A stretch of 64,000 bases of DNA, from positions 47,225-111,224 of the forward strand of contig JAUIKS010000008.1 in the NCBI GenBank assembly GCA_030430565.1, read 5' to 3'. Positions 3,001 through 57,126 of this stretch are shown here, piece after piece (position 1 is the stretch's first letter; each line of letters starts with the position of its first letter). The notes beneath the pieces were generated by a model, which saw nothing but the letters and a program-made list of their open reading frames with translations, did no database searches and was not told where the DNA came from. The stretch is from Polyangia bacterium. Lineage in GTDB: Bacteria; Myxococcota_A; Polyangia; Nannocystales; Nannocystaceae. The position numbers and the translations under genes were made by a program.

Positions 3001-3463
3001 CCAGCGTCGAGGCGATGCTGAAGTCGGAGAGCACGACGCGCCGCAGGTCCGGGGTCACGATGACGTTCGCCGGCTTGATGTCCTTGTGCAGCACGTGCTC
3101 GCCGTGCACGACCTCCAGCGCGCGCGCGAGCGCGACGGCGACGTCCAGCGCGACCGCGGGCTCGAGGCCCCCGCTCGGGATCAGCTCGCGCAGCGCGACG
3201 CCGCCGAAGTCCTCGAGGATCAGCGCCGAGCGAGGGCCGCGCTCCACGAACTCGAGCGCGCGCAGGACCCGATCATCGGCGAAACGCGAGAGGATGCGGT
3301 GCTCGTGACGAAGCCGCGCCACGCCGCGCGGAGAGCCGCACTCGCCGCGCAGCGTCTTGACGATCACGCGGGCGCCGTCGGCGAGGCGACGCCCGCGGAG
3401 CAGCACCGTGCGCCGCCCCTCGTGAACCCGAGTCGAGAGCTCGTATCCCGGCAGCGACTGCAT
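1..3463 (-). CDS. Ser/Thr protein kinase fused to a large AAA/STAND-like ATPase and helical repeat region. 3' end of gene runs beyond window start.
   Basis: Reverse-complement translation from ATG (complement of 3461-3463) gives MQSLPGYELSTRVHEGRRTVLL, then HKDIKPANVI and TLAYIAPEQ kinase motifs. A Walker-A-like LLLAGPSGIGKSALIHEL follows, then a long helical region. No stop codon before position 1. Not in the ORF track because it is open-ended. Confidence 0.8.
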   Translation of the reverse strand, partial: MQSLPGYELSTRVHEGRRTVLLRGRRLADGARVIVKTLRGECGSPRGVARLRHEHRILSRFADDRVLRALEFVERGPRSALILEDFGGVALRELIPSGGLEPAVALDVAVALARALEVVHGEHVLHKDIKPANVIVTPDLRRVVLSDFSIASTLAAERASALAAESFEGTLAYIAPEQTGRMNRPVDHRSDLYSLGVTLYELATGQLPFVSAEPIELVHAHVARLPVSPATIRPELPGVLSELVMLLLAKNAEDRYQSAAALRFDLERIKREWAERGASTSFELAAHESHSAFTLPAKLYGREDSVAAVFAALDRVCAGGHELLLLAGPSGIGKSALIHELNRPMSRRRGYLVRGKFEQYERDRPYSALSQALRELVLYVLLEPEGRLQARREALLAALKQNAAVVIDLVPEFERVIGPQPPATALPLAETANRFVTTIGALFQTLASERSPLVVFLDDLQWADLASLTLIEQLMRDPEVGHALWVGAYRDDEVLPEHPLAQTIDALRSEGAALCELSLSPLDEPLIAELLADTIHQPRSETRALAGFILDKTGGNPLYVRTLLSSLHEQGQISFSPGAGWRWELAEVQRAELPDDVVGLVVGQLATLEDATQGALRFAACIGNRFALQRLAALLDSSPARALEDLWPAVRLGLVRPIDDAYKYLSEDGAPVYFDFAHDRVQESAYSLLTEEARARVHLTLGRDALASEPEASRDQALFELVGHFNRAAALLTTTAERERVVALNLGAARRAKRSTAYRSARAYLEVATGLLPEDPWRRAEQSTRALHRERVEIEYLAGAPARALTFFEPLLEHTAAPIERADLFALRATLETNRGELHTAIAAGRAGLSALGVRLPRKVTTLSVLREFVRFQALRKGASADELLALPEMTDETARAAQRVMVSMTAAAYFIDTELASLLLLRVASESVKRGLTEVSAYGIIGVGLVLSGAFGRYESADEYGQLARDMNDRFANVALRTKISLFWATFMMVWTRPFAEVKEALREASQLGVENGDLIYAVYSSVTEVFIMVIAGDSLELLHERCAAVRQFVTRRGLADQIATLTYMLHAFGALRGDSAEQEPFDEEDFVRGIDDEATPLTMFYYHLYRAITRYLSGEDDAAARSLEEALQRTKVAFGSAIIADLRFFECLIRAR

Positions 3464-3725
3464 CGGCCTCGATCATCCTGTCGCGCGCGCCAGCGCTGCG
3501 GATCCGCGGGCATATCCTCGCTTCATCGCGTACCCACGTTTGCACCGCGGGATCATTCAGACAAGCGTTGATAACAGTTGCCCGCGCGGGCGATTGTGCA
3601 CGAGCGCCCCCGCGAACGCGGACGGCGCGATGGCGCGCGGCGCGTCATCACGCCCCGCGAACTCGATGATCAACGCGTTGTCGAAGCCCGCTCGCGCGGC
3701 GTAGAGCGCGTGCTACAGCAAGCGC

Positions 3726-4517
3726 GTGCTCCTGTACTGGCTCCGAAACAGGCGGCGGCGGAAGCTGCTCGAGCGGCCCTTCCCCGCGCGCTGGACCGAC
3801 TACTTGACGGCCAACATGGGCCACTACGCGGCGCTCGACGAGCGCGAGCGCGCCGCGCTGCATCAGCTGGTCCAGGTCTTCGTCGCCGAGAAGCACTGGG
3901 AGGGCTGCGGCGGCCTCGAGCTGACCGACGAGATGCGCGTGACGATCGCCGGCCAGGCCTGCCTGCTGATCCTCGGTCACGACCACGACCTCTATCGGCG
4001 GGTCGAGACGATCCTCGTCTACCCGTCGACGGTCGTGCCCACGCGGCCCACGCTCGCCCTCGGCGCCCACGACTACAGCCCGATGCCGGTGCTGGGCGAG
4101 GCGCACCTGCAGGGCCCCGTGATCCTGGCCTGGGACGCGGCGCTGCGCGGCGGGCTCAACCCCCGCGACGGCCGCAACCTCGTCTACCACGAGTTCGCGC
4201 ACAAGCTCGACATGCTCGATGGGTCAGCTGACGGCGCGCCCGCGCTGGCGAGCCACGAGCAGTACCGGCGCTGGGCCGAGGTCTGCGCGCGCGAGTACGA
4301 CGCGCTGCAGCGAGCGGTCGCCCGCGGGCGACGGACCTTCCTGCGCGACTACGGCGCGACCAACGAGGCCGAGTTCTTCGCCGTCGCGACCGAGCACTTC
4401 TTCGAGCAGCCGCGGGCGATGCGACGCAAGCACGCCGCGCTCTACGATCTCCTCCGTGACTTCTACCGCCAGGACCCGGCGACGCGAGACCTCCGCCGAC
4501 GCGCGACGAGACGATGA
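3726..4517 (+). CDS. mtfA: MtfA-like zinc metallopeptidase (peptidase M90 family)
   Basis: HEFAHKLD (HExxH) motif; EAEFFAVATEHFFEQP and DFYRQDP blocks resemble E. coli MtfA (IIHEVAHKLD, ECFAVLSEYFF, FYQQDP). GTG start at 3726. Confidence 0.75.
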   Translation: MLLYWLRNRRRRKLLERPFPARWTDYLTANMGHYAALDERERAALHQLVQVFVAEKHWEGCGGLELTDEMRVTIAGQACLLILGHDHDLYRRVETILVYPSTVVPTRPTLALGAHDYSPMPVLGEAHLQGPVILAWDAALRGGLNPRDGRNLVYHEFAHKLDMLDGSADGAPALASHEQYRRWAEVCAREYDALQRAVARGRRTFLRDYGATNEAEFFAVATEHFFEQPRAMRRKHAALYDLLRDFYRQDPATRDLRRRATRR

Positions 4518-22122: not shown

Positions 22123-24372
22123 CTACAGCGTCTTGAGGTACTCGATGATCGCCGCGCGCTCACCGTCGGTGAGCACCGAGGTGAACTCGTGACCCGAGTT
22201 GCCCTGCCCGAACATGTGCGTGTTGTAGATCTTGCGGTTCTCCATCTGCTGGGGCGTCAAGACCGGCGGCGCGAGGATATTCCAGACGGCGATGAAGTTG
22301 GTGTACAGCTGCGCGAGCAAGATCTGCACCAGCGGGTCGTTCTCGTTGGAGGGGTTGCAGTTGATGTAGGGGCTCACGCCGTTGCCGAGCTCGCACTCGA
22401 TGTCGTTGTACCGCCAGCCGACCCGCTCGGTGTCGTAGGCGCGCACGAGGTCGGTGTCGTGGCCCATGATCACGTCTTGACCGGGGGGCTTGGGCGTCGA
22501 GTAGCGCTTCCAGATGTCCTTGCGATCCTCGTGCTTGAGCACCTCCCACAGATTGGGCACGGAGCCGTTGTGGAAGTAGGGCGCGGTCGCCCACACGCCG
22601 AACAGCGGCGGCGCGAGGTAGCCCGGCTCGCGATCGCCGGCGAGGTCGGGGCGGTTCTGCGGGCCGCAGTCGTTCTCGGTCCCGTAGGTCTGCGGGTAGC
22701 CGAAGAAGCTCGACGCGCCGGCCTGCTGCACCGCCTCGTTGTTGGTCTCGAGGCGCACCGGGTCGGTGTTGATGATGTCGATCGGCGTGATGTAGCTGGC
22801 GATCCCCTCCATGCGCGGCGACGCGAGGAACGCGGGGTCGTTGAAGAACGCGGGCGCGTAGGCGCCGTGGCACGAGGCGCACGAGCCGTTGCCGGCCTCG
22901 GGGTCGGGGACCGGGTTGTCGCGCGCCGGGGCCCACAGGTCGAGGGTGTGGAACAGGATCGCGCCCGACTCCGCGAGCGTCTCGTCGACCGCGTAGGGAT
23001 AGGGCGGCGCCTTGAGGACGGTCGCCCAGTCGTTGAGCGGCGGGCCGTGCTCGCGCATCCAGTCCAGCGCCATCTCGCTGATCGGCCCGGCGAGGCCGCC
23101 GAACAGCCCGAAGAACGGGGTGAAGAACACCATGTCGACGCGCGGCGAGTCCATGGGGAACACGCCGTCGACGAACTTGAGCGCGCGGTGCCCCATGTTC
23201 CACCAGGCCGGCGTGTCCATGCCGGCCGTCGAGCCCGAGCTGATGAGCCCGAGCAGCGTCTCGAAGTCGTAGCCGTAGCCGGCCTCGGGGAAGAAGAACG
23301 CGAGGTTGATGTCGCTGGCGTTGTTGACCCCGCGGGTCTTGTTGAGGTTGAGCAGCGTCGCCGCCGAGGCGAGGTAGCCGAGCGGCAGCATGTCGCGCAA
23401 AAACAGGTGGTGATCGGCGAGCGGGCTGCCGCTCCCGAGCATCAGGCCCGGCGCGTCGTCCCCCGTGATCGCGCCGCTGTGGCAGCCGTGGCAGGTGATG
23501 CCGATGGTGCCGGTCCAGGTCCCGTCGGGCTCGCGCAGCTGCGTGAAGAAGTACGGGAGCGTGCCCGAGCCGCCGTTGGTCTGGTTGGGGTCCTCGCCGA
23601 TCAGCGGGTACGGGTTGGGCTCGGGGCCGAAGGCCGAGCCGACCCGCTCGGCCACGAGCTCGTCGAAGTTCTCCGGGCGCGTGAGCATGCCCCAGCTGAG
23701 GTACATCAGGTTGTACGAGCTCGCCGGGAAGGTGGCGGCGCCGAAGCCCGCCTCGATCTCCTGGTGGCTCGTCCCCGAGAACATGGCCCCTGCGCCAGGT
23801 CCGCTCGGCTGGATCAGCTCGCCGCCCCGCTCGACGCGCTCGCGCAGCTCGCCGCAGGTCTCGGCCGGGCCGTCCTCGCCGACCGCCTCGGGGTTGACGT
23901 GGCAGTCCTTCCAGAACGCGTTGAAGGCGACCGCGCGGCCGTCCGAGACGCCGGGCTGGACCAGCGAGCGCGGGTCGGTGGGCACCGGCGCGTCGTCCGG
24001 GCGGCACAGGCAGTAGTCCCACACCGCCCAGCCGCCGCGGCTGCTCCACAACAAGGCCTCCGGGTCAGGCTCCTCGATGCTCCCGTACTCCGGGTGCTCG
24101 CCGTCGCCGCAGTAGAACGGCTCTTCGTCACCGTCCGTGACGGCGCCCGTGCTCGTGCCGGAGTCGGAGTCGGAGTCAGACTCCGCGCCGTCGTCGGTCG
24201 CGGCCGCGTCGGAGCCGGCGCTGTCGGGGCCGGCGGTGGTGCCGACGTCGCCGCCGACCTCGGAGGTCGCGGGCGCGTCGGTCTCGCCGCCTTCGTCGTC
24301 GCCGCAGGCCACGGGGCCGAGGCTGAGCAGCGCGAGGAACGGGACGACGGGAGCAGTGCGGAGCCGAGTCAT
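22123..24372 (-). CDS. Lipoprotein di-haem c-type cytochrome, CCP/MauG/RoxA-superfamily-like (paralog 2, larger, with a Cys-rich N-terminal extension)
   Basis: Start MTRLRTAPVVPFLALLSLGPVACG (complement of 24370-24372). Haem motifs ITCHGCHSG and CASCHGAY. Conserved C-terminal block APPLFGVWATAPYFHNGSVPNLWEVL ... IIEYLKTL shared with paralogs 1 and 3. Extra N-terminal region of about 200 aa with several Cys residues. Confidence 0.7.
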   Translation of the reverse strand: MTRLRTAPVVPFLALLSLGPVACGDDEGGETDAPATSEVGGDVGTTAGPDSAGSDAAATDDGAESDSDSDSGTSTGAVTDGDEEPFYCGDGEHPEYGSIEEPDPEALLWSSRGGWAVWDYCLCRPDDAPVPTDPRSLVQPGVSDGRAVAFNAFWKDCHVNPEAVGEDGPAETCGELRERVERGGELIQPSGPGAGAMFSGTSHQEIEAGFGAATFPASSYNLMYLSWGMLTRPENFDELVAERVGSAFGPEPNPYPLIGEDPNQTNGGSGTLPYFFTQLREPDGTWTGTIGITCHGCHSGAITGDDAPGLMLGSGSPLADHHLFLRDMLPLGYLASAATLLNLNKTRGVNNASDINLAFFFPEAGYGYDFETLLGLISSGSTAGMDTPAWWNMGHRALKFVDGVFPMDSPRVDMVFFTPFFGLFGGLAGPISEMALDWMREHGPPLNDWATVLKAPPYPYAVDETLAESGAILFHTLDLWAPARDNPVPDPEAGNGSCASCHGAYAPAFFNDPAFLASPRMEGIASYITPIDIINTDPVRLETNNEAVQQAGASSFFGYPQTYGTENDCGPQNRPDLAGDREPGYLAPPLFGVWATAPYFHNGSVPNLWEVLKHEDRKDIWKRYSTPKPPGQDVIMGHDTDLVRAYDTERVGWRYNDIECELGNGVSPYINCNPSNENDPLVQILLAQLYTNFIAVWNILAPPVLTPQQMENRKIYNTHMFGQGNSGHEFTSVLTDGERAAIIEYLKTL

Positions 24373-24400
24373 GGGGATTCTCGCTTTCGTTGCCGAAAAA

Positions 24401-24415
24401 CTTGTTGGCAACAAG
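24401..24415. promoter_or_regulatory. Palindrome CTTGTTG-G-CAACAAG in the divergent promoter region between the di-haem gene and the DUF2236 gene. A one-mismatch copy sits at 24530-24544 (CTTGTTGGCAACTAG).
   Basis: Read directly in the sequence; reverse complement of the 8581-8595 motif. Confidence 0.5.
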
Positions 24416-24623
24416 CAAATACACAGGAAGCGGACAGCCGGTCAAGTGACGCGCTCGAACACCGTACGATGACCGTTTGGTCGGTTTTGGGGGAAATCGA
24501 GCGTCGCTCCGCGCGGCACGGGCAACTTACTTGTTGGCAACTAGCAAATTTAAACGCATCCTCGACAGCATCAAGCGACATGCCGAGCCCCACCACGAGA
24601 CGAACGCTCCTGTCCCCCAGAAC

Positions 24624-25577
24624 ATGCGCGAAAGCGAGACGCTCGCCGGGTCGCGCGGCGGGAGCACCCGAGCATTGAGACCGACGATGCAGCCTCACGA
24701 TTCGCGCGACCAGCCCCGCGCCGCCGCCTCGTCATGGCCGAAGGTCGACTACCTCAACCCGCCCGGGGCGCGCTCGCTCTACGCCCCCGACTCGATCTCG
24801 TGGCACGTGTTTAAAAACCCGGTCGCGCTGTTCGTCGGCGGGGTCGCGGCCGTGCTGCTCGAGCTCGGCGAGCCGCGTGTGCGCACAGGCGTCTGGGAGC
24901 ACTCGAGCTTCCGCAGCGATCCGATCGCGCGGATGAAGCGAACCGGGCACGTTACCCACGTCTGCGCGTACGCCCCGCGCGAGGTCGCGGAGCAGGTCGT
25001 GGCCCGCGTCGTGAAGATGCACGCGCGCGTGCGCGGGGAGACGCCCGCGGGGACGCGCTACCACGCGAACGATCCCGAGCTCTTGAATTGGGTGCAGGCG
25101 ACGGTCGACTTCGGTTTCATGGAGGCCTACGCGGCCTACTGCCACCCGCTCTCCGACGCCCAGCGCGATCGCTTCTACGCGGAGTCGATCGCCGCAGCCG
25201 CGCTGTTCGGAGCGACCGGCGCGCCAACCACGCTGGACGAGCAGCGCGAGCACTTCGCGGCGATGCGCTCGGCGCTCGAGCCCCACCCGATCGTGCTCGA
25301 GTTCCTCGAGATCATCACGCGAACGCCCGCGGTCCCGCGCCCCCTCGCGGGTCTGCAAGCGATCATGATCCGCGCCGGCGTCGACCTGCTCCCCGATTGG
25401 GTCATCGCGCGCCTCGAGCTCCAGGCGTTCCGAATCACGCGCCGCGAGCGGCTGCTGCTGATGGCGGCGGGCCGGCTGTTCGACCGAATCCCGCTCCCGG
25501 GGAGCCCTCCGTCCCTCGCCTCGAGGCGCCTCGGGCTTCCGAGCCACTACCTCTACTGGGGCCGCGGGCGGCTGTGA
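24624..25577 (+). CDS. DUF2236-family oxygenase (MpaB / Lcp-type haem-dependent oxygenase family). Alternative start 24687.
   Basis: ISWHVFKNPVALFVGGVAAVLLELGEPRV and the downstream pattern are typical of DUF2236 (PF09995). No signal peptide. ORF-track start 24477 was rejected because the protein family begins further in. Confidence 0.65.
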   Translation: MRESETLAGSRGGSTRALRPTMQPHDSRDQPRAAASSWPKVDYLNPPGARSLYAPDSISWHVFKNPVALFVGGVAAVLLELGEPRVRTGVWEHSSFRSDPIARMKRTGHVTHVCAYAPREVAEQVVARVVKMHARVRGETPAGTRYHANDPELLNWVQATVDFGFMEAYAAYCHPLSDAQRDRFYAESIAAAALFGATGAPTTLDEQREHFAAMRSALEPHPIVLEFLEIITRTPAVPRPLAGLQAIMIRAGVDLLPDWVIARLELQAFRITRRERLLLMAAGRLFDRIPLPGSPPSLASRRLGLPSHYLYWGRGRL

Positions 25578-25685
25578 CGGCGGGGCTCGCGGGCCTCGCG
25601 CTCGTCGTCCTCCGCAGCAGGGTCGTGGTGACGATACGCCCTAGGACGCGATACATGGCTCATCGGCCATGACGCGCTCGCCCCG

Positions 25686-27422
25686 TCACGGGAGCAGCCG
25701 GGCGAGGAAGGTGCGCGCGAGCTCGCCATCCGCGACGAGCGCGGGCCCGGCGATCTCCATGGTCCCGTAGTAGTCACCGGCCCAGAGCAGCGCGACCGGG
25801 TCGCTCTCGCCGTCGAAGGCGAGCTGACGGCCGCTCTCAGGCTGCTTGTTGCTGCTGCCGCCGAAGCGCTCGCTCCACAGGTGCGCGCCGGTCGCGAGCT
25901 CATAGCGCGCGAGGCAGGCGTCGTCGGGCCCGCTGATCACGAGCGGGCCGCCGCCGAGGTCGAGGCCTTCGAAGCACGGACCGGAGACGAACACGTGCCC
26001 GTGCTCGGCGTCGACGGCGACGCCGCGGGCGATGTCGTCGACCGCGGGCGCGCCGAAGCGCTGCGCCCAGCTCACGTCGCCGGTCGTCGCGTTCATGTTG
26101 ACCAGGAAGATGTCGTGGTTCACGTCCGATCCGCTGTCGAGCTCGAGCGCCGAGATCGTCGACGTGAAGTCGCCCACCACGACCATCTCGTCGTCACCGT
26201 CATAGGCGAGCCCGCGGACCGATGTCTCCCCGTCGCTGACGAAGGAGTCGCTCCAGCTGAACGCGCCGTCGGCCACGGCGAGGCGCGCGACGAAGCTGTC
26301 ACGCGGCCCGGCGCTGGTGTGCTCGTCGCTGCCCAGCACGATCGAGTTCGCGAAGGTGCCCGCGATCAGGACCGAGCCAGGGCTGCCGTTGATCACCGTG
26401 TTGACGGCCTCGTAGCCCCCCAGCCCGCCGAGCTGCTGCGCCCAGTGAACTTGGAGGCTCGAGTCGAGGCCGGCGATGAACCCGGTCGCCTGCCCGAAGG
26501 CGAAGCCCTCGCTCTCGAGCGGCCCGACGCCGAGGTCGAGCTGCCCCTGGTAGCCGCCGCCGAGGATGAGGCGATCGAAGCTCGCGTCGTAGGCGAGCCC
26601 GGACCCGAACTGCGTGCCGTTCGTCGGGAAGGCGACGACCTTCCCGCACTGCCCGTTGTTCGCGTCGAGCTGCGCGACGAACAGGTCCGGGTCGGTCGAC
26701 TCACCCCCGAGGTCCACCTCGCACAGAAACAACGGGCCAGTGTAGTCGCCGGTGATAAACAGCGAGCCGGACTCGGTGACGATCAGGTCGCGCAGCGTCT
26801 CGTGACCGCCGCCCTCTTTGCCGTCGCCTAGGTCGCTGATCCACTGGAGCGATCCGTCAGGCGCGAACTTCATGACGTGCATCTTGAAGATCGTGGAGGA
26901 CCCCTCGACGTCATGCTGGGCGTGCGAGATCCCGAGCTTGTAGATGCCGCCGAGGTAGATGTTGCCCGCGGCGTCGACCACCAGCCCCTCGTTGAGGATC
27001 TCGCCGTCGCCGAAGCCGACGGACCAGTTCGGCCCGGGCGCGCAGTCGAACTGGTCACACGCCCCCGGCTCGCCCGTGCTGCTGCCGCTGCTCGAGTCGG
27101 GAGCGCCGGTGCTCGTCGAGGCGCCTTCGGTCGCGTCGGCGGTCGTCGCCGCGCTCGTCTCCGCCGCGCCCGTCGAGCCGCTGAGCTCCCCGCTCGAGGA
27201 CACGGTCGTCATCGCGTCGGTCTGCGCGTTTGGATCGCTGCACGCTCCGTCGACGCAGCGCTGCCCCGCGTCGCACTCGCTGTCCGCGGTGCACGGCAGG
27301 CCCTGCGTCCCCGGCTGCTTCCAACACCCAGCGGGCCCGGGGAGCGCGAGCGCGAGCGCGAGCCAGCCCGCGAGCGAGCGAGCGCGCGAGCGCGGCCGCT
27401 GGTCGTCTCGATCAGACACCAC
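25686..27422 (-). CDS. Secreted/lipoprotein beta-propeller repeat protein (SBBP-like), Cys-rich N-terminal module
   Basis: Signal peptide ending PGPAGC. A C-rich segment (CTADSECDAGQRCVDGACSD), an S/T/G linker, then repeated G..Y.G/D..G strands typical of myxobacterial beta-propeller proteins. Confidence 0.55.
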   Translation of the reverse strand: MVSDRDDQRPRSRARSLAGWLALALALPGPAGCWKQPGTQGLPCTADSECDAGQRCVDGACSDPNAQTDAMTTVSSSGELSGSTGAAETSAATTADATEGASTSTGAPDSSSGSSTGEPGACDQFDCAPGPNWSVGFGDGEILNEGLVVDAAGNIYLGGIYKLGISHAQHDVEGSSTIFKMHVMKFAPDGSLQWISDLGDGKEGGGHETLRDLIVTESGSLFITGDYTGPLFLCEVDLGGESTDPDLFVAQLDANNGQCGKVVAFPTNGTQFGSGLAYDASFDRLILGGGYQGQLDLGVGPLESEGFAFGQATGFIAGLDSSLQVHWAQQLGGLGGYEAVNTVINGSPGSVLIAGTFANSIVLGSDEHTSAGPRDSFVARLAVADGAFSWSDSFVSDGETSVRGLAYDGDDEMVVVGDFTSTISALELDSGSDVNHDIFLVNMNATTGDVSWAQRFGAPAVDDIARGVAVDAEHGHVFVSGPCFEGLDLGGGPLVISGPDDACLARYELATGAHLWSERFGGSSNKQPESGRQLAFDGESDPVALLWAGDYYGTMEIAGPALVADGELARTFLARLLP

Positions 27423-27485
27423 CCCCCACCCTACTGCACTCCGCGAGGATCGAAACCGGCCGCGCGGCTCGCTCCTAGCGGGTGC

Positions 27486-28385
27486 TTAGAACTCGCCGCG
27501 CAGCAGGAGGCCCGCGAAGCCGGGCGCGAGCGCGGGCGCGAGCGCGAGGCCGTCCGCGCGCTGCCGCGACTTGCCGACGATGATCAGCGCCGCGCCTGTG
27601 GCGAGCAACGCCCCGCCGAGGACGCCGCCGGCGATCGCCAGGGAGTTGCCCCGCTCTCCGCGGTTGATCGCGGCCGTCCGCTCGGCGCCGTTGCTCGCCC
27701 CTAGGAACTCGTCGACCGCGTTGTCGCCGATCACGAGCCCGCCGGCCATGAGGCCGAAGCCGACGAGCGAGGCGCCCGCGACCACGGCTCCGCCGATCAC
27801 CAAGCCCGCGCCCGGCTTGCGCGGGCTCGTCGGCTCAGGCGGCGACGACGGCTCGACCGGCGTGGCCGGCTCGACCGGCGCTGGCGCTGGATCCTCCTCG
27901 ACCTCCGAGACCTCGGCGAGCAGCTTGTCGACGACCGCGAGCAGCTCGTCCGCAGCGACGCGCTCCTCCTCGCTGAACGCCTCGCGCTCGCGGTACTGCA
28001 GGAGCAGCGCGCGCGCTTGGCCGAGATGCTTGGGGTCGTCGTTGATCTCGTAGGCCTTGATGTGCGCGCCGGCGAGGTTGAATTGCAGGGTCGCCGAGAC
28101 GACCGCGCGGAACTGCGTATCCTCGATCCGGATCGCCTCCTCGTACGCGCGCGTGAAGCTCTCGATCGCGCCCTCGTAGTCCGCGGTCTCGAACTGCGCC
28201 TGGCCGCGCTCAAACAGCGCCTTCGCCCGGGCCTCGGCGTTGTCGCGCGCGGCCGAGCTCGCCGCGCTCGCGCCGGCGCGACTCGAGCTGAGCGCGACGC
28301 CGAGGAGCGCGACCCACAGCGCCAGACCGCCGCGTCGGCGAGACCGGCGCGCGTTCCTCGTGGGCGCAGAGAGAGGACGCTGCAT
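27486..28385 (-). CDS. Secreted TPR-like protein with a Gly/Ala-rich C-terminal hydrophobic segment
   Basis: Start MQRPLSAPTRNARRSRRRGGLALWVALLGVALSSS (signal peptide). TPR-like helices (ADYEGAIESFTRAYEEA). C-terminal GLVIGGAVVAGASLVGFGLMAGGLVIG resembles a membrane anchor. 28427 is an alternative start. Confidence 0.5.
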   Translation of the reverse strand: MQRPLSAPTRNARRSRRRGGLALWVALLGVALSSSRAGASAASSAARDNAEARAKALFERGQAQFETADYEGAIESFTRAYEEAIRIEDTQFRAVVSATLQFNLAGAHIKAYEINDDPKHLGQARALLLQYREREAFSEEERVAADELLAVVDKLLAEVSEVEEDPAPAPVEPATPVEPSSPPEPTSPRKPGAGLVIGGAVVAGASLVGFGLMAGGLVIGDNAVDEFLGASNGAERTAAINRGERGNSLAIAGGVLGGALLATGAALIIVGKSRQRADGLALAPALAPGFAGLLLRGEF

Positions 28386-28688
28386 CCGCGACACTATACA
28401 AGCAAGCCGCGCAATAACGACGTCCACGTTCCCGCGCCGCGCCGCGCCTTGCTACTGTCGTGGGCCGCAGCTCGCGCGCGAGCGGACGCGCCCTGTCTGT
28501 TCATGGAGGAACGCATGACGCCTAGACACCGACCCCTCTGGCCCGCCCTCGCAGCCCGTGGCGAACGTCCACGCGCCGGCACACGTGATCCCTCCGCCGC
28601 CGACTTCGTTGGCGAAACGAGCAGTACGCCCGAAACAACTTCGTTTCACCGCCTCGCCCGCGACGAGAACTCCGGCGCGAGCCGACAC

Positions 28689-30299
28689 GTGGACGTTCGC
28701 CGCGGGCTGCTCGCCCTGATCGCCGCCAGCGCTGCGATCGCGCTCCCGGCCTGCGGCGACGCAGTCGACACCGAGACGACCGCCGATCCCAGCGACGCCG
28801 GCACGACCGGCGACGCGCCGGGGGACTCCGCCGACGGCGCGACCACGAGCGCGGGCGCGAGCGCGACCGGGGCGACGACGACCAGCGCGAGCGAGACGAG
28901 TGAGACCAGCGGGACCAGCGAGGGCATGGAGGACACCTTCGGCCCGGGCCCGTGGGACCACGGCTATCCGATCCCGCACGAGGATCAGGTCCCCGGCGAT
29001 CCCGAGGCGGGCTACGAGGCGCTGCTGACCCGCGGCTACGTCAGCTGTGGTGTCCCCTACGCCATGTTCCAGCTGGCGAAGGGCCTGCTCGGTCCCTACG
29101 CGGACGGGCCCGCGCTGCCGGGCCGCGAGGGCAAAAACGCGCTCGTCCCCTTCAACTGGACGGTCCACAGCGAGACCAAGAGCGGGGCCGAGGTCGCCGC
29201 GCTCAACTGCCTCACCTGCCACGCGGGCTACGTCAACGGCGAGCTGATGGTCGGGGCCGGGCGCGCCGACGGTGACTTCACGGCCGACATGGGCGCGCTC
29301 GTCGGCGCGATCCCGATCCCCGATCTCCCGATCCTCGGGCTCAGCGAGCTCGCGGCGATGCAGAGCCGCTACGAGGCGCTCGGGCCCTACACCCAGATGC
29401 ACACCATCGGCTCCAACCCCGCCGACATGATCGCGGTGGTGCTCGCGGCCCACCGCGACCCCGTGACGCTCAATTGGAGCGACGAGCCGCTCGAGCCGAT
29501 CGCGGCCGAGCCGATCCCCATCGACACGCCGCCGTGGTGGCGCTCGAGCAAGAAGAGCAGCCTGTTCCACAACGGCATGGCCCGCGGCGACAAGCGCGGG
29601 ACGATGATGTTCGCCTCGTCGCTGTGCACCGACTCGGTCGCCGAGGCCGAGCTGATCATGTCGTACTTCAACGACGTCAACGCGTACATCCAGTCCATCG
29701 AGCCGCCGCCCTACCCCTTCACGATCGACGCCGCGCTCGCCGACGAGGGCGAGCTGCTGTTCATCGACAGCTGCGCCGGCTGCCACGGCACCTACGCCGA
29801 CGATCCCGCGGACGACTGGTACCCCAACCTGATCATCCCGACCGAGATCATCGGCACCGATCCGTCGCTCGCGGACTACGGCGTCGACGACGTCGCGCAC
29901 ATGGTCGACTGGTACAACAGCTCGTTCTACGGCGCGTACACGCGGCTCGAGCCGGGCGACCCGGTCGCCGGCTACACGGCGCCGCCGCTCGACGGCGTGT
30001 GGGCGACGGCGCCCTTCTTTCACAACGGCTCCGTGCCGACAATCGAGGGCGTGCTCAACAGCGCGGCCCGCCCGCCCTACTGGAAGCGCGTCGACTACGA
30101 CAGCAGCAACCTCGACCAAGACGCGCTCGGCTGGCCCTACGTCGAGACCCCCTACGGTCAGCAGGACGCGCCCGAGGACGAGAAGATCCACGTCTTCGAC
30201 ACGACCCTGCACGGCCACAAGAACGCAGGCCACCCGTTCGGAGACGCGCTCTCGCCGGGCGAGCGCCGGGCGGTCATCGAGTATCTCAAGACGCTGTAG
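28689..30299 (+). CDS. Lipoprotein di-haem c-type cytochrome, CCP/MauG/RoxA-superfamily-like (paralog 3; closest to paralog 1)
   Basis: GTG start gives (M)DVRRGLLALIAASAAIALPACGD (lipobox LPAC), then an S/T/G/D linker. NCLTCHAG and CAGCHGTY; PPLDGVWATAPFFHNGSVPTIEGVL; VIEYLKTL. The ORF-track 5' extension back to 28017 overlaps the opposite-strand TPR gene and was rejected. ATG at 28503 is an alternative start but would place the signal peptide about 60 aa inside the protein. Confidence 0.65.
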   Translation: MDVRRGLLALIAASAAIALPACGDAVDTETTADPSDAGTTGDAPGDSADGATTSAGASATGATTTSASETSETSGTSEGMEDTFGPGPWDHGYPIPHEDQVPGDPEAGYEALLTRGYVSCGVPYAMFQLAKGLLGPYADGPALPGREGKNALVPFNWTVHSETKSGAEVAALNCLTCHAGYVNGELMVGAGRADGDFTADMGALVGAIPIPDLPILGLSELAAMQSRYEALGPYTQMHTIGSNPADMIAVVLAAHRDPVTLNWSDEPLEPIAAEPIPIDTPPWWRSSKKSSLFHNGMARGDKRGTMMFASSLCTDSVAEAELIMSYFNDVNAYIQSIEPPPYPFTIDAALADEGELLFIDSCAGCHGTYADDPADDWYPNLIIPTEIIGTDPSLADYGVDDVAHMVDWYNSSFYGAYTRLEPGDPVAGYTAPPLDGVWATAPFFHNGSVPTIEGVLNSAARPPYWKRVDYDSSNLDQDALGWPYVETPYGQQDAPEDEKIHVFDTTLHGHKNAGHPFGDALSPGERRAVIEYLKTL

Positions 30300-30407
30300 T
30301 CACGCGCGAGCCGTCGCGCGCGAACGCGCGAGCGCGGCCGACGTGACCCGCGGCTTACTGTCAAGGTCCATGTCCGACCGCAACAATTCGGAGGCCTGTG
30401 GAGTCTC

Positions 30408-32591
30408 TCAGGAAAAGCGGCTCCGAATACCAGGCATCACTGGTAAAATCCACACGGGAGATTCACCATGTGTAGCGATTGTTCGTAGCTCTTTGCGCTC
30501 CTCTTCGGCCAGCATATCTGCACACCGCCTAGCAACATTCTCCGCTTTCCGCCAACCTTTTGTGCTCGATCTCCGGTAGACTCTTTCGAGCGACACTGCA
30601 TCCTTCTCAGAGTATAGTAATATATCAAAAGAACAGGCCAGAAAGTACTCGCGCGATCGAAGGATCTCGTGGATGTAGTACCGTCCTGAAGATCCTATCC
30701 GAACTCGATCTTCGCTGGCCCACGGCGCTTCGAGTCGGTCGTAGGAAACGATGAGGCGCTCTCGCCCTAGAAAATTGACTGTACGCTCGACGACCCCGGG
30801 CTCATAACCGATTTGCTTCATGGTATCGACAATTGCACTGACACTTGCATCAGTCATGCAACTGGCATTCTGGGATGCCCAGTCTAAATATTGGAGCACA
30901 CGAACGGAGGCAAAGCGTGCCTCCATCGTATTCTTGGCACCGCGCAGGAGGTTAACAATCGGTGCTCGAGCTTCGTTGTAAACCCAGTTCTCGCCTTTCA
31001 TAACGGACCGAAGAAAGCTATCGAGCGTAATTGGGGAAGACCAGCCTCTCCCCTGAGACGCATCGTAGTCTCGGAACAACTTGTTGATATCAGTATGTGC
31101 ACTTGTTGAGTACCTCTCAACCAGCTTCAGAGCCTCTCTTATATTCCCACCCCCAAGAGCCGAGATGCACTCTCTTGCAGGCGGCCGATTCAGAACTGTC
31201 CCCGCAAGAATCTCTACAAAGTCTAATACACGCTCGTGATCAAAGCCGCGCATATCTCTGACAAACTGCGCTCCGAGGTGCTTGTCGCCGCGAAGCTCAT
31301 TGCGAATATATTCGACTCTTGCGGTAGCGACCTCCGCGAACGGAGGAGGATCTATCTGGAGAACCGTTGGTAACCGAACGTCTAGAAACCCCCCTGTCAC
31401 TCCACGTTCAAAAGTTGTTCCGCGCATGGAAATGGCTATGCTCGCATCAGTTTTGTGCGCTAAGTCGGCGGCGAGTTGATAAATCACCTTCTCAAACGCC
31501 ACTGTTCCTTGGTCTACGTTGTCGAGCACCACAATCGCTGAGCCGACCTCGCGTGCGACAAAGCCCAGCCATGCCTTGAGGTGCTCTTTGCGACGATCGA
31601 GGTGTTTCAGGATAATCTCGTCCTCGTCCTGCGGCGAGGGAGGCGGGCTATCAGGAGACCTAGCCGAACGGAAGCGTCGCAATTCTCCAGCAAACACTTT
31701 TCGCAGTACGGAGTTCTGAAAAGGAGACATCTTTGAATAATGAGTCTCGGCTTGATCAAGAAGATCTTTACAGATGGCGTCGATTAGACGATCATGATCG
31801 AAATTACTGGAGTGAAGCTGTGTATTATTAATAAGATCGACGTGCAAATATATTGCCTTATGCTCTTCTGGGCGACGTTCAACTTGTAACTTAAGCATTG
31901 CGAAGAAGGTTGATTTTCCACTCCCGGGTGGTCCGACCACCAGTGACACCCCTTTGCGAGGTTCGCCGTGGAATATTGCGTCAACAGGATCAACAGACGT
32001 TCGGTCTACTGGGTCTACTTCATCACCGTCCCGCAGCGCGCTTGGAAGCGTACTTGCGCTGAAGGGCTCAAGTTCCGCGAGATGCGTGTCCGTAGCGCTT
32101 GATCTGACATAGCATGCCCGCAGCATATCCTGGTGGCGTTCGTCCGTGAGATCATGAAAGCAGAGGCGCATCAATCGACGAATAGGACGAGTCAAGTAGT
32201 TCTTAGAACTTGAAGTGTCGACTTTCGTCATTGACAAAAGCTGGTGAAGACTTCTTGCGTAACTTGGCGTGCGGGACTTTCGCTCTGCGACTGCCAATTG
32301 TTGAGTCGGTACAGAAGTCCATAGCAACGCAACAGCTTCAATGTCCTCACGCCGGCGCGGCCGCTCTCCTACAAGGGCGGCGAAAAACTCGTGGTCGACG
32401 AGGCCGTGCCGTTTGAGCATGGCGATCGCGTTCTCGATCAAGACGGCCAGTGATGCAGGTGTACTCGGCAAACTAGAGAGAAGCTCGTCTGCTTGAGGAA
32501 ATCGTCCGAGAAAGCGGCGGAACTCCCTGTCGATGAAGAGCGACTGGAGAAGTGCTTCAAGGGCTCGCTCCTTGCTAGTCGGCAAGTTCAT
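30408..32591 (-). CDS. P-loop NTPase with NACHT/STAND-like motifs and an N-terminal alpha-helical effector-associated (EAD/Death-like) domain. Candidate anti-phage defence protein carried on a low-GC island.
   Basis: 727 aa. Walker A GPPGSGKST. Walker B-like IVVLDNVDQG (hhhhDxhD, NACHT-type). The N-terminal ~95 aa (ERALEALLQSLFIDREFRRFLGRFPQ ... LAVLIENAIAMLKRHGLVDHEFFAALVGERP) has the helical pattern of EAD/Death-like adaptor domains. Long helical C-terminal region. Gene body GC is about 40-45% against about 70% in the flanks. Confidence 0.75.
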   Translation of the reverse strand: MNLPTSKERALEALLQSLFIDREFRRFLGRFPQADELLSSLPSTPASLAVLIENAIAMLKRHGLVDHEFFAALVGERPRRREDIEAVALLWTSVPTQQLAVAERKSRTPSYARSLHQLLSMTKVDTSSSKNYLTRPIRRLMRLCFHDLTDERHQDMLRACYVRSSATDTHLAELEPFSASTLPSALRDGDEVDPVDRTSVDPVDAIFHGEPRKGVSLVVGPPGSGKSTFFAMLKLQVERRPEEHKAIYLHVDLINNTQLHSSNFDHDRLIDAICKDLLDQAETHYSKMSPFQNSVLRKVFAGELRRFRSARSPDSPPPSPQDEDEIILKHLDRRKEHLKAWLGFVAREVGSAIVVLDNVDQGTVAFEKVIYQLAADLAHKTDASIAISMRGTTFERGVTGGFLDVRLPTVLQIDPPPFAEVATARVEYIRNELRGDKHLGAQFVRDMRGFDHERVLDFVEILAGTVLNRPPARECISALGGGNIREALKLVERYSTSAHTDINKLFRDYDASQGRGWSSPITLDSFLRSVMKGENWVYNEARAPIVNLLRGAKNTMEARFASVRVLQYLDWASQNASCMTDASVSAIVDTMKQIGYEPGVVERTVNFLGRERLIVSYDRLEAPWASEDRVRIGSSGRYYIHEILRSREYFLACSFDILLYSEKDAVSLERVYRRSSTKGWRKAENVARRCADMLAEEERKELRTIATHGESPVWILPVMPGIRSRFS

Positions 32592-32679
32592 TGCTGACGA
32601 CTATGTTAGGTGCTTTCGCCATGGAGGACCAGTCCTCGCTAGGCAAGGGCTCGTCGCGCGGCCGCGGGGCGCCGTGTCG

Positions 32680-33384
32680 CTAGCGCGCGGCCTGGGCCGA
32701 CCACGCGCGCGCGTCGAGCCCCTTGACGAGCAGCCAGACGCACAGCGCCGTCTCGGCGAGCAGCGGGATGACGTACGCCGGCGCGAAGGCGGCCGCGAAC
32801 TCGGGGGCGACGAAGCGCGCCGCGCTGCCGACGAGGTAGACGACCCCCGAGCACCCGATCGCGTAGCCGATGATCCGGGGCAGGAACTCCGCGCGCGCGA
32901 CCAGGACGCCGACGAGCAGGCAGTTGAAGGCGAAGAACACGAGCCCGAGGTCGTAGCCGGCCGCGTGGGCGTCGAGCAGCGAGACCACCCACGCGTCGCG
33001 GTGACCCGCCTCGAGGCCCGTGGACGTCGCGATCGTGACGGCCTGGTAGAGGTTGACGAGGTTGAGCCCGAGCGCCGCCGCCTGGACGAGCCGGAAGGCC
33101 ATCGCCGCGAGCGAGAGCGTTCGGCTGACCGGCGCGAGCAGGACGTAGAGCAGCACGCCGAGGCCGACATCGGCGATCACCATCGCCATGTCCGCGAGGA
33201 CGCTGAGGCGAAACGGCAGCTCGGCGGCGACGAGGTTGGCCACGGTCTGCGCGGCGCTCTCGGCGAGCAGCGGCTCGCGGATCAAGCCCTGCCCGCCCAC
33301 GCCGCAGACGATGATGACGAGGTAGAGCAGCCCCGCGAGGCGGGCGAGACGGCGGGGCGATTTGATGTGGTCAAGCTCGAGCAT
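32680..33384 (-). CDS. Integral membrane protein (DUF4386-like, 4-5 TM helices)
   Basis: Hydrophobic helices throughout. N-terminal RRLARLAGLLYLVIIVCG is typical of DUF4386. High GC, host-like composition. Confidence 0.55.
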   Translation of the reverse strand: MLELDHIKSPRRLARLAGLLYLVIIVCGVGGQGLIREPLLAESAAQTVANLVAAELPFRLSVLADMAMVIADVGLGVLLYVLLAPVSRTLSLAAMAFRLVQAAALGLNLVNLYQAVTIATSTGLEAGHRDAWVVSLLDAHAAGYDLGLVFFAFNCLLVGVLVARAEFLPRIIGYAIGCSGVVYLVGSAARFVAPEFAAAFAPAYVIPLLAETALCVWLLVKGLDARAWSAQAAR

Positions 33385-33416: not shown

Positions 33417-34097
<681 letters not shown>

Positions 34098-34214
34098 GCC
34101 GATTCCTCCCGTTCGCGCCGGGTTCATCGCCGGCGCCACATATGGGATACCCATGCACGAACGTGCGAACCATTCCCCAGGCTCGCACTTCATATATGCA
34201 ATCATGCATACAAT

Positions 34215-52324: not shown

Positions 52325-53017
52325 TCAGCGCCGCGCTCGCGCGAGGCTCGAACGAGGCGAGGCGGTGATCGCCTCGCGGACCTGTCGACGCGCGCGGTGC
52401 AGCCGGGACTTGACCGCGCTGACGGTCAAGCCGGTCTGCTGCGCGACCTCTGGCGCCGTGCACCCCTCGACATCGCGGGCGACGAGCACCTCTCGATCAA
52501 GCGGCGCCAGACCCTCGAGCGCCGCTTGAAAGCGAACCGAGAGCCGCTGGCGATCGAGCCCGCGCTCGAGGCAAGCGTCGCCTGCACACTCCTGCGCGCT
52601 CATCGCCTCACGGAACCCGGCGCCGGTCCGGACGCGGGTACGCTCGCGGCGACGCTCGCGGTGGGCGAGGCTCCGCGTGATGGTGAACACCCACGTCATG
52701 AACGAGGCCTCACCGCGGAAGCTGCCGAGGTTGCGCACGATCCCCAGCATCGTCTCTTGAAACAGATCCTGGGCGTCCTCGGCGTCACGCGCCATGCGCT
52801 CACAAACACGCATGATGCGTCGCTCGTAGCGCCGAAGCAGCGCGTTGAGGGCCTCCCGATGCCCGTCGACGCCGCGCGTGATCAGCTCGTCGTCGCCGAG
52901 CTCGGACCACCGGGGCTCGGACGGGACGACGCGCAGCGCCGGGCGGGGCTCGCACTCAAGAACTCCGGCGCGGGGCGCGGACAGAACCTCAGCGGTCGCG
53001 GTAGGGGCTCCAAGCAT
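52325..53017 (-). CDS. ECF-subfamily RNA polymerase sigma-70 factor
   Basis: Region 2 (ALNALLRRYERRIMRVCERMARDAEDAQDLFQETMLGIVRNL) and region 4 (EVAQQTGLTVSAVKSRLHRARRQVRE). Confidence 0.8.
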   Translation of the reverse strand: MLGAPTATAEVLSAPRAGVLECEPRPALRVVPSEPRWSELGDDELITRGVDGHREALNALLRRYERRIMRVCERMARDAEDAQDLFQETMLGIVRNLGSFRGEASFMTWVFTITRSLAHRERRRERTRVRTGAGFREAMSAQECAGDACLERGLDRQRLSVRFQAALEGLAPLDREVLVARDVEGCTAPEVAQQTGLTVSAVKSRLHRARRQVREAITASPRSSLARARR

Positions 53018-53282
53018 CGGTCACCTCCGCATGTTTCTTGAGCAAGGGACGTTCCCCAAGGGTCGAGAGCGCACTCCGGCGAAACCTCAGCGCTTTTTCC
53101 TGGGGCCCCCAGACCGAATTGTTTTCGGAATCCCTAGATCCGGTTTTTTCGGAGTTTAAACATCCGAAAATTCGGATCTATAAGATCCGATTCTTGACTC
53201 CTGACGATTTGAAGAAGCCTGCACCCTTTCCTATTGCCAACGACTCGAAGGGGACAGAACCCCGAGATCCGAGGAGGGTGCT

Positions 53283-53633
53283 GTGGAATACCAACAACCG
53301 ATCGACGAGCTCCTGCGCCGGTTTACGACGTTTCGCGGGCGAGACCTCCGCAGACGGGGGCTTCAGAACCTGCAAGAAGTCATCGACCTCCTCCAAGAGT
53401 ACTTCGACGAGGCGGGCGTCAACGCGCTCGACATTCGACGGGACGCGCCGGGAGCCAAGCGACGCGGCGTGATCACGATCGAGCGCGCCGTGCAGTACCT
53501 CGACGACTTCGAGGACGACTACCTGATCCGGGTCATCGACGCCGACCGCGAGTTCATCCGTCGCGCCGAGCCCATCGTCCGCGGCTTCACCCGCTGGATC
53601 CGCGGGCAAGCGGTGCGGGTCGCCGCGGCCTGA
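53283..53633 (+). CDS. Small hypothetical protein (116 aa)
   Basis: GTG start 7 nt after GAGGAGGG. Non-shadow composition (MEYQQPIDELLRRFTTFRGRDLRRRGLQNLQEVIDLLQEYFDEAG...). Sits downstream of an AT-rich repeat-bearing region. Confidence 0.5.
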   Translation: MEYQQPIDELLRRFTTFRGRDLRRRGLQNLQEVIDLLQEYFDEAGVNALDIRRDAPGAKRRGVITIERAVQYLDDFEDDYLIRVIDADREFIRRAEPIVRGFTRWIRGQAVRVAAA

Positions 53634-56437: not shown

Positions 56438-56613
56438 GGGGCGACGAGTACCACAGCGGGCCAGCCAGTCGGACACCCAACCCGTGAAAGCAGCTGCACA
56501 GGCACTGGTTAGAATTACAGATTTTTCACCAGTGCATTTTCAACCAACCAAAAAGCGAGACACCCACACGGGGTGCCTCGCAGTTTTGCTTGGTGACTTT
56601 CTAGGGACGCAGG

Positions 56614-56880
56614 CTACTCGGCGGCCTTCTCGTCGCCGCCCTCGGCCTTCTCGTCGCCGCCTTCGGCCTTCTCGTCGCCGGCCGCCTTCTCGTCGCCGGC
56701 CGCCTTCTCGTCAGCGCCCTTCTCGTCCTTGGCGTCGGCCTTCTTGTCGCCGTCCTTCTTGTCGCCGTCCTTCTTGGCGTCGGCGCCCTTCTTGTCCTCG
56801 GTCTTCTCACCGCCGCACGCCGGAGCCGTCATGGCAAAGGCGGTAAGGGCGGCGAGCACGAACTTGCTGTTGAGCTTCAT
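56614..56880 (-). CDS. Small low-complexity lipoprotein (K/D/E-rich GDKK / GDEKA repeats)
   Basis: AGGGAGA RBS before the ATG. Signal peptide MKLNSKFVLAALTAFAMTAPACGG (lipobox). The rest is KDGDKK and GDEKAAG/GDEKAEG repeats, encoded by a roughly 21-nt DNA tandem repeat. Confidence 0.5.
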   Translation of the reverse strand: MKLNSKFVLAALTAFAMTAPACGGEKTEDKKGADAKKDGDKKDGDKKADAKDEKGADEKAAGDEKAAGDEKAEGGDEKAEGGDEKAAE

Positions 56881-57126
56881 TGGCTGAATCTCCCTGTTTG
56901 GGTGGGTTCGAGTCGTGTTTGCGACTTTAAGCGATAGGCCAAGACAAGTTCAATCATCGCGTAGATCCGTCAGGCGCACACGGCGCGATCGCGCATTTGC
57001 TGCCGTCGGCTCAAACGACGCCTGCGGTTCTACCTGCACACGCACGACACACCCACCCGGTTCACACCGGCCCCCGGGTCGCTGCCCGCAGGACGCGTTG
57101 TGACCAGGTTCTGGGGCTCCTTCGGC

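Follow-up and report, generated by a model that had tools for sequence, protein, structure and literature searches.

How a gene of foreign composition comes to stand between two metabolic genes of a GC-rich myxobacterium, and what a protein that travels without partners could do there, are the questions raised by a 64,000-nucleotide (nt) stretch of contig JAUIKS010000008.1 (Polyangia bacterium, assembly GCA_030430565.1), hereafter the window, which carries a single-gene island of low guanine-plus-cytosine (GC) content near its middle. The island gene is foreign to its surroundings, intact, and under selection; its product keeps the NTPase residues that are invariant in its family as well as a winged helix, and a helical domain stands where the family's nuclease is absent. 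We read the locus as a foreign insertion of about 2.29 kb encoding a switch NTPase of the ORC/Cdc6-STAND type, in which the nuclease would have been exchanged for a predicted Death-fold adaptor acting in trans, and we put the probability of this reading as a whole at about one half.

Composition and origin of the island

Positions 30340 to 32640 have a GC content of 52.7%, against 70.4% for the remaining 61.7 kb of the window (sliding-window profile and direct counts), which is the lowest value of all 2.3-kb windows in the 64 kb (distribution mean 0.698, standard deviation 0.032). The GC content at third codon positions (GC3) of the island's open reading frame (ORF) is 0.53, against 0.83–0.97 for the roughly 45 other GC3-selected ORFs across the window, and the tetranucleotide distance between the island and the rest of the window, 0.64, is the largest in the window (median 0.19, 95th percentile 0.26). 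A first-pass annotation made from the letters alone had proposed a compositional island here; these counts place it far beyond chance, and the sliding-window GC, GC3, and k-mer check that it called for makes the island the strongest outlier in the 64 kb. Its figures need correcting, however: the GC content of 40–45% that it gave was too low, the measured value being about 52–53%, and individual 60-nt lines inside the island, described as 32–50% GC, range from 32% to 68%. The sharp transitions that it placed near the ends of the flanking genes are present, with GC falling at about 30345–30360, some 50 nt past the stop of the RoxA-like gene on the left (30299), and rising at about 32640, 40 nt short of the stop of the DUF4386 gene on the right (32680). 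From GC, tetranucleotides, and homology to the copy described below, we delimit the foreign low-GC segment, to which no strand is assigned, to about 2.29 kb at 30350–32640, with boundaries good to within about 10 nt. Weaker low-GC patches (0.58–0.61), much milder than the island and probably intergenic, lie at 34000–34200, 52750–53500, and 56500–57000.

The flanking host genes, a RoxA-like di-haem cytochrome c gene (28515–30299, plus strand, GC3 host-like) and a DUF4386 gene (32680–33384, minus strand, GC3 0.97, 88 nt upstream of the island gene and on its strand), are convergent, so that the island lies inside their 3'–3' spacer. It holds exactly one large ORF, and the ORF list, a repeat search, and a tRNA scan revealed neither an integrase or transposase nor a tRNA target or terminal repeats at the island; a pair of tRNAs at 54.8 kb, 22 kb away, makes up all the tRNA and Rfam matches of the window. 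The search of the junctions for short direct repeats suggested by the first-pass annotation yielded nothing significant, the longest exact repeat being 9 nt, a length reached in 11.5% of control window pairs. Junction repeats were accordingly rejected as a target-site duplication, the 9-nt repeat being at chance level and the imperfect GC-rich repeats D9 and I20 lying outside the edges. The description of the island as a single large ORF free of integrase, transposase, and tRNA, and as a compact insertion rather than a mobile element, thus stands, with terminal repeats and a target-site duplication lacking as well. Terminator hairpins at the ends of both host genes fold well, though without exceeding the stability of shuffled sequence (z −0.22 and −1.67), and are not claimed.

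The identical protein (P0001) is on record on a 346-kb NCBI contig and in an independent Logan assembly of ERR3428547, whose contig has the same junctions as the window and is reported in two samples. The sole close homolog, P0002 (84% amino-acid identity), comes from L002, a JGI metagenome contig of 5.4 kb whose GC content is about 57% throughout and whose flanks are unrelated to the window. The two copies are 81% identical in nucleotides over positions 30431–32631 (blastn), and to about 32636 in a global alignment, and the DNA that they have in common is limited to the ORF and a 45-nt 5' leader (32592–32636, minus strand), the sole non-coding DNA shared in the pairwise alignment. A small upstream ORF in this leader (an out-of-frame ATG with 14 codons, overlapping the start codon) was considered and dropped, as it is not closed in L002. 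Directly downstream of the P0002 gene, L002 carries at 2879–4270 two degenerate N-terminal fragments of IS256-type (Transposase_mut) genes in opposite orientations.

Synonymous divergence (dS) between the two genes is about 0.92, and the ratio of nonsynonymous to synonymous divergence (dN/dS) is 0.09 overall, which indicates purifying selection, and 0.23 for the N-terminal domain. The GC3 of the window copy (0.526) is below that of the L002 copy (0.60), host genes being at about 93%, and its synonymous third-position differences comprise 83 toward GC and 121 toward AT. Because there is no lean toward host GC3, the gene has not ameliorated, and its acquisition would therefore be recent. A recent horizontal acquisition of a single-gene segment from a donor of roughly 50–57% GC is well supported by these sequence comparisons; the first-pass annotation had likewise proposed a recent horizontal insertion of a compact single-gene cassette, and the unameliorated GC3, the homolog in a 57%-GC background, and the lack of mobility genes agree with it.

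The source is apparently a metagenome-derived assembly and no empty site was found, which could suggest an assembly chimera or an old resident gene of unusual composition. A search of genome contigs with the RoxA-like flank gave 12 loci, none of which shares any other flanking gene (the closest ortholog, 74% identical, is in a Nannocystaceae metagenome-assembled genome, and those of Nannocystis species are 55–56% identical and not syntenic), exact look-ups of both flanking proteins returned the source contig only, and among the five loci found for DUF4386 in metagenomes only the pairing of an NAD-binding gene with DUF4386 was kept, in one contig (L025). Host sequence continues on both sides of the island, however, and the independent Logan contig in two samples and the identical protein on the 346-kb contig reproduce what an artefact would not; a GC3 of 0.53 where every other gene exceeds 0.83 cannot be that of an equilibrated resident, and the homolog sits in a 57%-GC background. 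An assembly artefact is effectively excluded, and we regard this alternative, in either form, as very remote.

The encoded NTPase and its parent family

The island ORF (30408–32591, minus strand, as are all of the features that follow) is intact and encodes 727 amino acids (aa) that comprise a Death-fold-like N-terminal domain, a linker, a P-loop NTPase, a lid, a winged helix, and C-terminal helices. The six-helix N-terminal domain (aa 1–95, 32307–32591), predicted to have a Death fold, takes the place of the family nuclease. It is followed by a family-conserved linker (aa 100–210, 31962–32294) whose motifs NYL..PIR.LMRLCF.DL and CYV are invariant columns of alignment A1 and which is mostly of low confidence in the structural model, with a predicted local distance difference test score (pLDDT) below 50 for residues 162–213. 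The P-loop NTPase core (aa 211–417, 31341–31961) contains a Walker A motif, GPPGSGKST (31908–31934), a Walker B motif, IVVLDNVD (31512–31535), and a near-invariant R390, and the helical lid (aa 418–500, 31092–31340) contributes R425 and R485, both invariant in the family alignment. The latter arginine lies inside GGGNIREALKLVE (31116–31157), which we take to resemble the Orc1/Cdc6 sensor-2 motif 'GDAR.A..LL'. A winged-helix domain (aa 560–645, 30657–30914) and a C-terminal helical tail (aa 646–727, 30411–30656) complete the protein, and neither alignment A1 nor the AlphaFold2 model places a large repeat-type sensor in that tail.

[quoted passage not shown] The structures that match the core most closely are DNA-binding AAA+ proteins (TnsC, Cdc6/Orc1, and MuB), together with winged helices of the MarR type. 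Matches of the protein to Pfam are all sub-threshold, with AAA_16 the nearest (30.2 bits, cut-off 32.6) alongside AAA_22, NACHT, and nSTAND; the STAND NTPase models fall further below their Pfam cut-offs (NACHT 17.2 vs 26.7 bits, nSTAND3 and nSTAND5 about 14 vs 27–34), and a whole-protein scan of NCBIfam gave nothing convincing. We class the protein as an AAA+ P-loop NTPase of the ORC/Cdc6-STAND type with a winged helix toward its C-terminus.

Searched by word index, 5.8 billion proteins yielded only nine relatives of the window protein; a profile search run exhaustively over 1.84 billion cluster representatives returned 2225 at E<1e-3, 633 of them at E<1e-30, nearly all 800–1000 aa long and matching from about profile position 10–20 onward. 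Pfam HSDR_N and AAA_16 are above their cut-offs in two of these relatives, P0020 and P0133. In a family alignment of 57 diverse members, the window protein and P0002 included, all 57 retain Walker A G220, G223, G225, and K226, Walker B D357, N358, and D360, and the lid arginines R425 and R485. Neither Pfam, NCBIfam, nor PADLOC holds a family-level model for this HsdR_N/AAA_16/winged-helix family; RefSeq calls its plasmid members 'type I restriction enzyme HsdR N-terminal domain-containing protein', and 'type I restriction endonuclease' and 'hypothetical protein' are also in use (e.g., WP_102856471.1 and WP_015405781.1). A subgroup of 960–1006 aa (P0020, P0026, P0027, P0040, and similar proteins) has an additional C-terminal extension of about 150 aa, which in P0020 gives a weak match to the PADLOC model MTase_II.

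One relative, P0004 (38% identity), lies within a dense defence island (L003, 1–22505; also L004 and L005). It stands there between an MmeI-type restriction–modification (RM) gene accompanied by SLFN_AlbA_2, on one side, and Amidoligase_2 with its two GGACT genes, on the other; further on comes an RVT_1 reverse transcriptase of 669 aa, which has a partner of 436 aa, and the neighbourhood also includes an N6_N4 methyltransferase and DUF3987. The plasmid relatives (21–27% identity) are all solo genes: that of Phaeobacter pP51_d stands beside RelE/ParE and a recombinase, that of Shewanella beside IS30 and a type II RM system, that of Pantoea beside integrase, recombinase, and ISNCY genes, that of Desulfocapsa between rep and parA, and that of Vibrio casei among IS3 and IS66 elements. 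Across 50,697 phage genome records there was no match, and viral contigs supplied only two relatives, at 20–22% identity. Read locus by locus, these contexts fit an accessory, conflict-type, single-gene module, and typical members are probably restriction-type or abortive-infection-type nucleases that bind DNA and depend on NTP.

The same contexts bear on a different account, in which the island gene would serve the replication or targeting of an integrative element since degraded, its product being an AAA+ protein like ORC/Cdc6 or like TnsC and MuB. Plasmid relatives near rep and par genes, and the IS256-type fragments that adjoin the gene on L002, would suit such a factor. Against it, the island lacks a transposase and an integrase as well as origin-like repeats and any further element genes, the plasmids that carry the relatives encode Rep proteins of their own, and the relatives bear a conserved restriction-endonuclease-type motif and stand solo beside RM or toxin–antitoxin (TA) genes, one of them in a defence island. 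We judge this account improbable.

The N-terminal domain and a proposed mechanism

All 55 of the relatives sampled begin with an HsdR_N-type nuclease domain, with the motif E..DY..EAK in 54 and EAT at its end in one, and the 57-sequence alignment has gaps at all six nuclease motif columns in the window protein and P0002. In the lineage of these two proteins, as the alignment reads, the nuclease has been lost and a helical domain of about 95 aa is in its place. Six helices are predicted for this domain both in the full model and in a domain-only model built from two sequences (pLDDT 82, predicted template-modelling score 0.73). Foldseek against the PDB gave nothing significant (best E-value 2.5); the few matches with a template-modelling score (TM) of 0.4–0.5 are Death-fold domains, and matches to globin and CnrX have TM of about 0.2–0.3. 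With FADD, MyD88, AIM2, MAVS, and the CARDs of CED-3 and CED-4 as the Death-fold proteins named for comparison, the models make a Death fold of the CARD/DD/PYD kind likely.

[quoted passage not shown] By the same 'effector-associated domain' logic, we propose that a foreign segment of about 2.29 kb was inserted between the 3' ends of the RoxA-like and DUF4386 genes, leaving no recognisable scar, and that its product would sense a trigger, for which the most plausible candidate is nucleic acid contacted by the winged helix, as in ORC/Cdc6, TnsC, and MuB. Sensing would lead to NTP-dependent oligomerisation, oligomerisation would cluster the N-terminal Death-like domains, and the clustered domains would recruit or activate in trans an effector bearing a cognate domain. 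The role in conflict or defence, the trigger, the oligomerisation, and the effector in trans are what we infer from analogy with these systems.

Several results weigh against this proposal. PADLOC-DB 2.0 has no convincing model for the protein (the best, mad8, matches the P-loop only, at E 4.2e-5), the relatives score equally weakly against PADLOC models, and no experimental test of any family member was found in the literature. In its own genome the gene stands among metabolic genes and not in a defence island, and the protein has no large C-terminal sensor, so that the trigger is a guess. The N-terminal domain matched nothing in Pfam, EAD models included, at E<=10 except a spurious DurB-like hit, no death domains in a profile search of PDB sequences, nothing in a plasmid tblastn, and nothing in the NCBIfam whole-protein scan. 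Nor did a local HMM search, run over the window and over 473 kb of fetched loci, find a second copy of the domain or a candidate effector in the 64-kb window, in the 5.4-kb L002, or in the other fetched loci; a two-sequence profile of the domain run against the 5.8 billion proteins by word-indexed search missed even its own protein and is uninformative. The 'defence-type' label of the first-pass annotation consequently survives in part: P0004 in a defence island and plasmid relatives near RM, TA, recombinase, and insertion-sequence genes speak for it, and the missing PADLOC match, the absent nuclease, and the metabolic neighbours speak against it. A defence role of the island gene is, from its relatives' sequences and settings, plausible but indirect.

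Foldseek's lack of a significant Death-fold match and the lack of a homotypic partner would also suit a protein whose N-terminal domain recruits nothing and which binds DNA in an NTP-dependent manner through its winged helix, either as a transcription or partition-like regulator or as a dominant-negative decoy of nuclease-bearing members. Such a regulator or antagonist would be in keeping with the DNA-binding AAA+ proteins and MarR-type winged helices that are the nearest structural matches, and some STAND proteins are transcription factors (PMC13581612). The N-terminal domain nevertheless occupies the family's effector position, at which adaptors replace effectors in related systems (PMC8195603), and we consider a nuclease-less regulator distinctly unlikely.

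The island gene might, finally, be an inert passenger, having been acquired without a partner that it needs, or never having had one, and being a neutral hitch-hiker whose decay is still to come. Neither the window nor L002 shows a partner or effector, the genes around the island do not make up a defence context, and the lack of amelioration would leave too little time for visible decay. Nor was a recognisable sigma-70-like promoter found upstream of the island gene on its strand, where the consensus may not apply to myxobacteria; given that absence, transcription by read-through from DUF4386 into the island gene appears possible. What tells against neutrality is the intact 727-codon ORF together with a dN/dS of 0.09 at a dS of about 0.9, by which a solo gene of the same architecture has been kept by selection in at least two lineages; moreover, both known copies are solo, suggesting that the single gene is the transferable unit. 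We regard an orphaned passenger as unlikely and, like the regulator and the element factor, less probable than the exchange of the nuclease for an adaptor.

Known systems, surroundings, and significance

The closest comparison for the proposed adaptor-bearing NTPase is its own parent family, with which it shares homologous linker, NTPase, lid, winged helix, and C-terminal helices (33–39% identity to the nearest nuclease-bearing clade), the invariant Walker A, Walker B, R425, and R485, and the occurrence of members as solo genes, and from which it differs by lacking the PD-(D/E)xK nuclease and having the six-helix Death-fold-like domain instead. Like the EAD-coupled NTPase systems (PMC7159879, PMC8195603), it has a small all-alpha N-terminal domain, predicted to be Death-like in fold, where relatives have an enzymatic effector, and it is found in a multicellular-type bacterial host, a myxobacterium. 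Unlike them, it has no Pfam EAD sequence match and no second copy nearby, and its NTPase family differs from their vWA-MoxR, iSTAND, and AP-ATPase cores. CARD-NLR systems (the Lysobacter gasdermin system and the Azospirillum and Pedobacter variants, PMC10312443) and Caulobacter LypABC (PMC13236601) are operons of three to four genes, whereas the island is a single gene with the domain on the N-terminus of the ATPase itself and with no repeats, protease, or gasdermin neighbour. Avs and other bacterial NLR-like STAND proteins (PMC13581612) have the large C-terminal sensor that is missing here, where only about 85 aa follow the winged helix. The Orc1/Cdc6-like sensor-2 arginine motif sets the protein apart from them too, and its nearest structures are TnsC and Cdc6, not STANDs. 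The combination of a bacterial Death-fold domain with an Orc1-like ATPase is already known, as is the principle of effector-to-adaptor swaps; new here are a different and uncurated NTPase family, the N-terminal position of the predicted Death domain, the absence of a repeat sensor, and the form of a solo, transferable gene of 2.3 kb.

Orthologs of the flanking cytochrome identify the host, on sequence, as a Nannocystaceae-like myxobacterium, and the genes that surround the island in the window are metabolic ones: those for RoxA-like cytochromes, an Lcp-like protein, and DUF4386, together with an NmrA-like reductase gene and a spermidine-synthase-like gene. On the metagenome contig L025 (57% GC), a gene for an NmrA-like NAD(P)H-binding protein and DUF4386 (36–1022) are followed by a histidine-kinase-like gene with no island, and the recurring NmrA-like/DUF4386 pair suggests that these two genes form an operon of the host whose end coincides with the insertion site. 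RoxA-like di-haem cytochrome c genes at 22123–24414 (minus strand) and 28515–30299 (plus strand) flank an MPAB_Lcp_cat gene (24477–25577) that is latex-clearing-protein-like, and 22123–30299 may be a cluster of the polyisoprene or rubber-oxygenase type. At the left end of the window (2–3463, minus strand) a resident gene with a GC3 of 0.95, which may extend past that end, codes for a protein of 1153 aa in which a protein kinase is joined to an AAA_16 NTPase (127 bits).

The transfer in itself is ordinary, and should the adaptor model fail, what is left is a well-documented, ordinary recent single-gene horizontal transfer; it is the domain swap and the parent family that merit follow-up. If the model holds, the locus would represent an effector-to-adaptor swap, as in animal CARD and Death-domain signalling, outside the described STAND and CARD-NLR systems and in a form (one gene, 2.3 kb) small enough to move between distant genomes. 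A bolder version, which we hold to be doubtful, is that the gene is a horizontally transferable 'plug-in sensor', its ORC/Cdc6-type AAA+ product having given up its nuclease for a Death-fold adaptor by which, once transferred, it could couple to the network of Death or EAD effectors resident in a multicellular myxobacterium. Were that so, it would be a single-gene, apoptosome-like module built on a family of NTPases with no earlier link to Death domains, and the parent family, with its 2225 cluster representatives, would be a new class of stand-alone immunity or restriction proteins. The finding in any case flags a large family of solo nuclease–NTPase genes that occur on plasmids and in at least one defence island.

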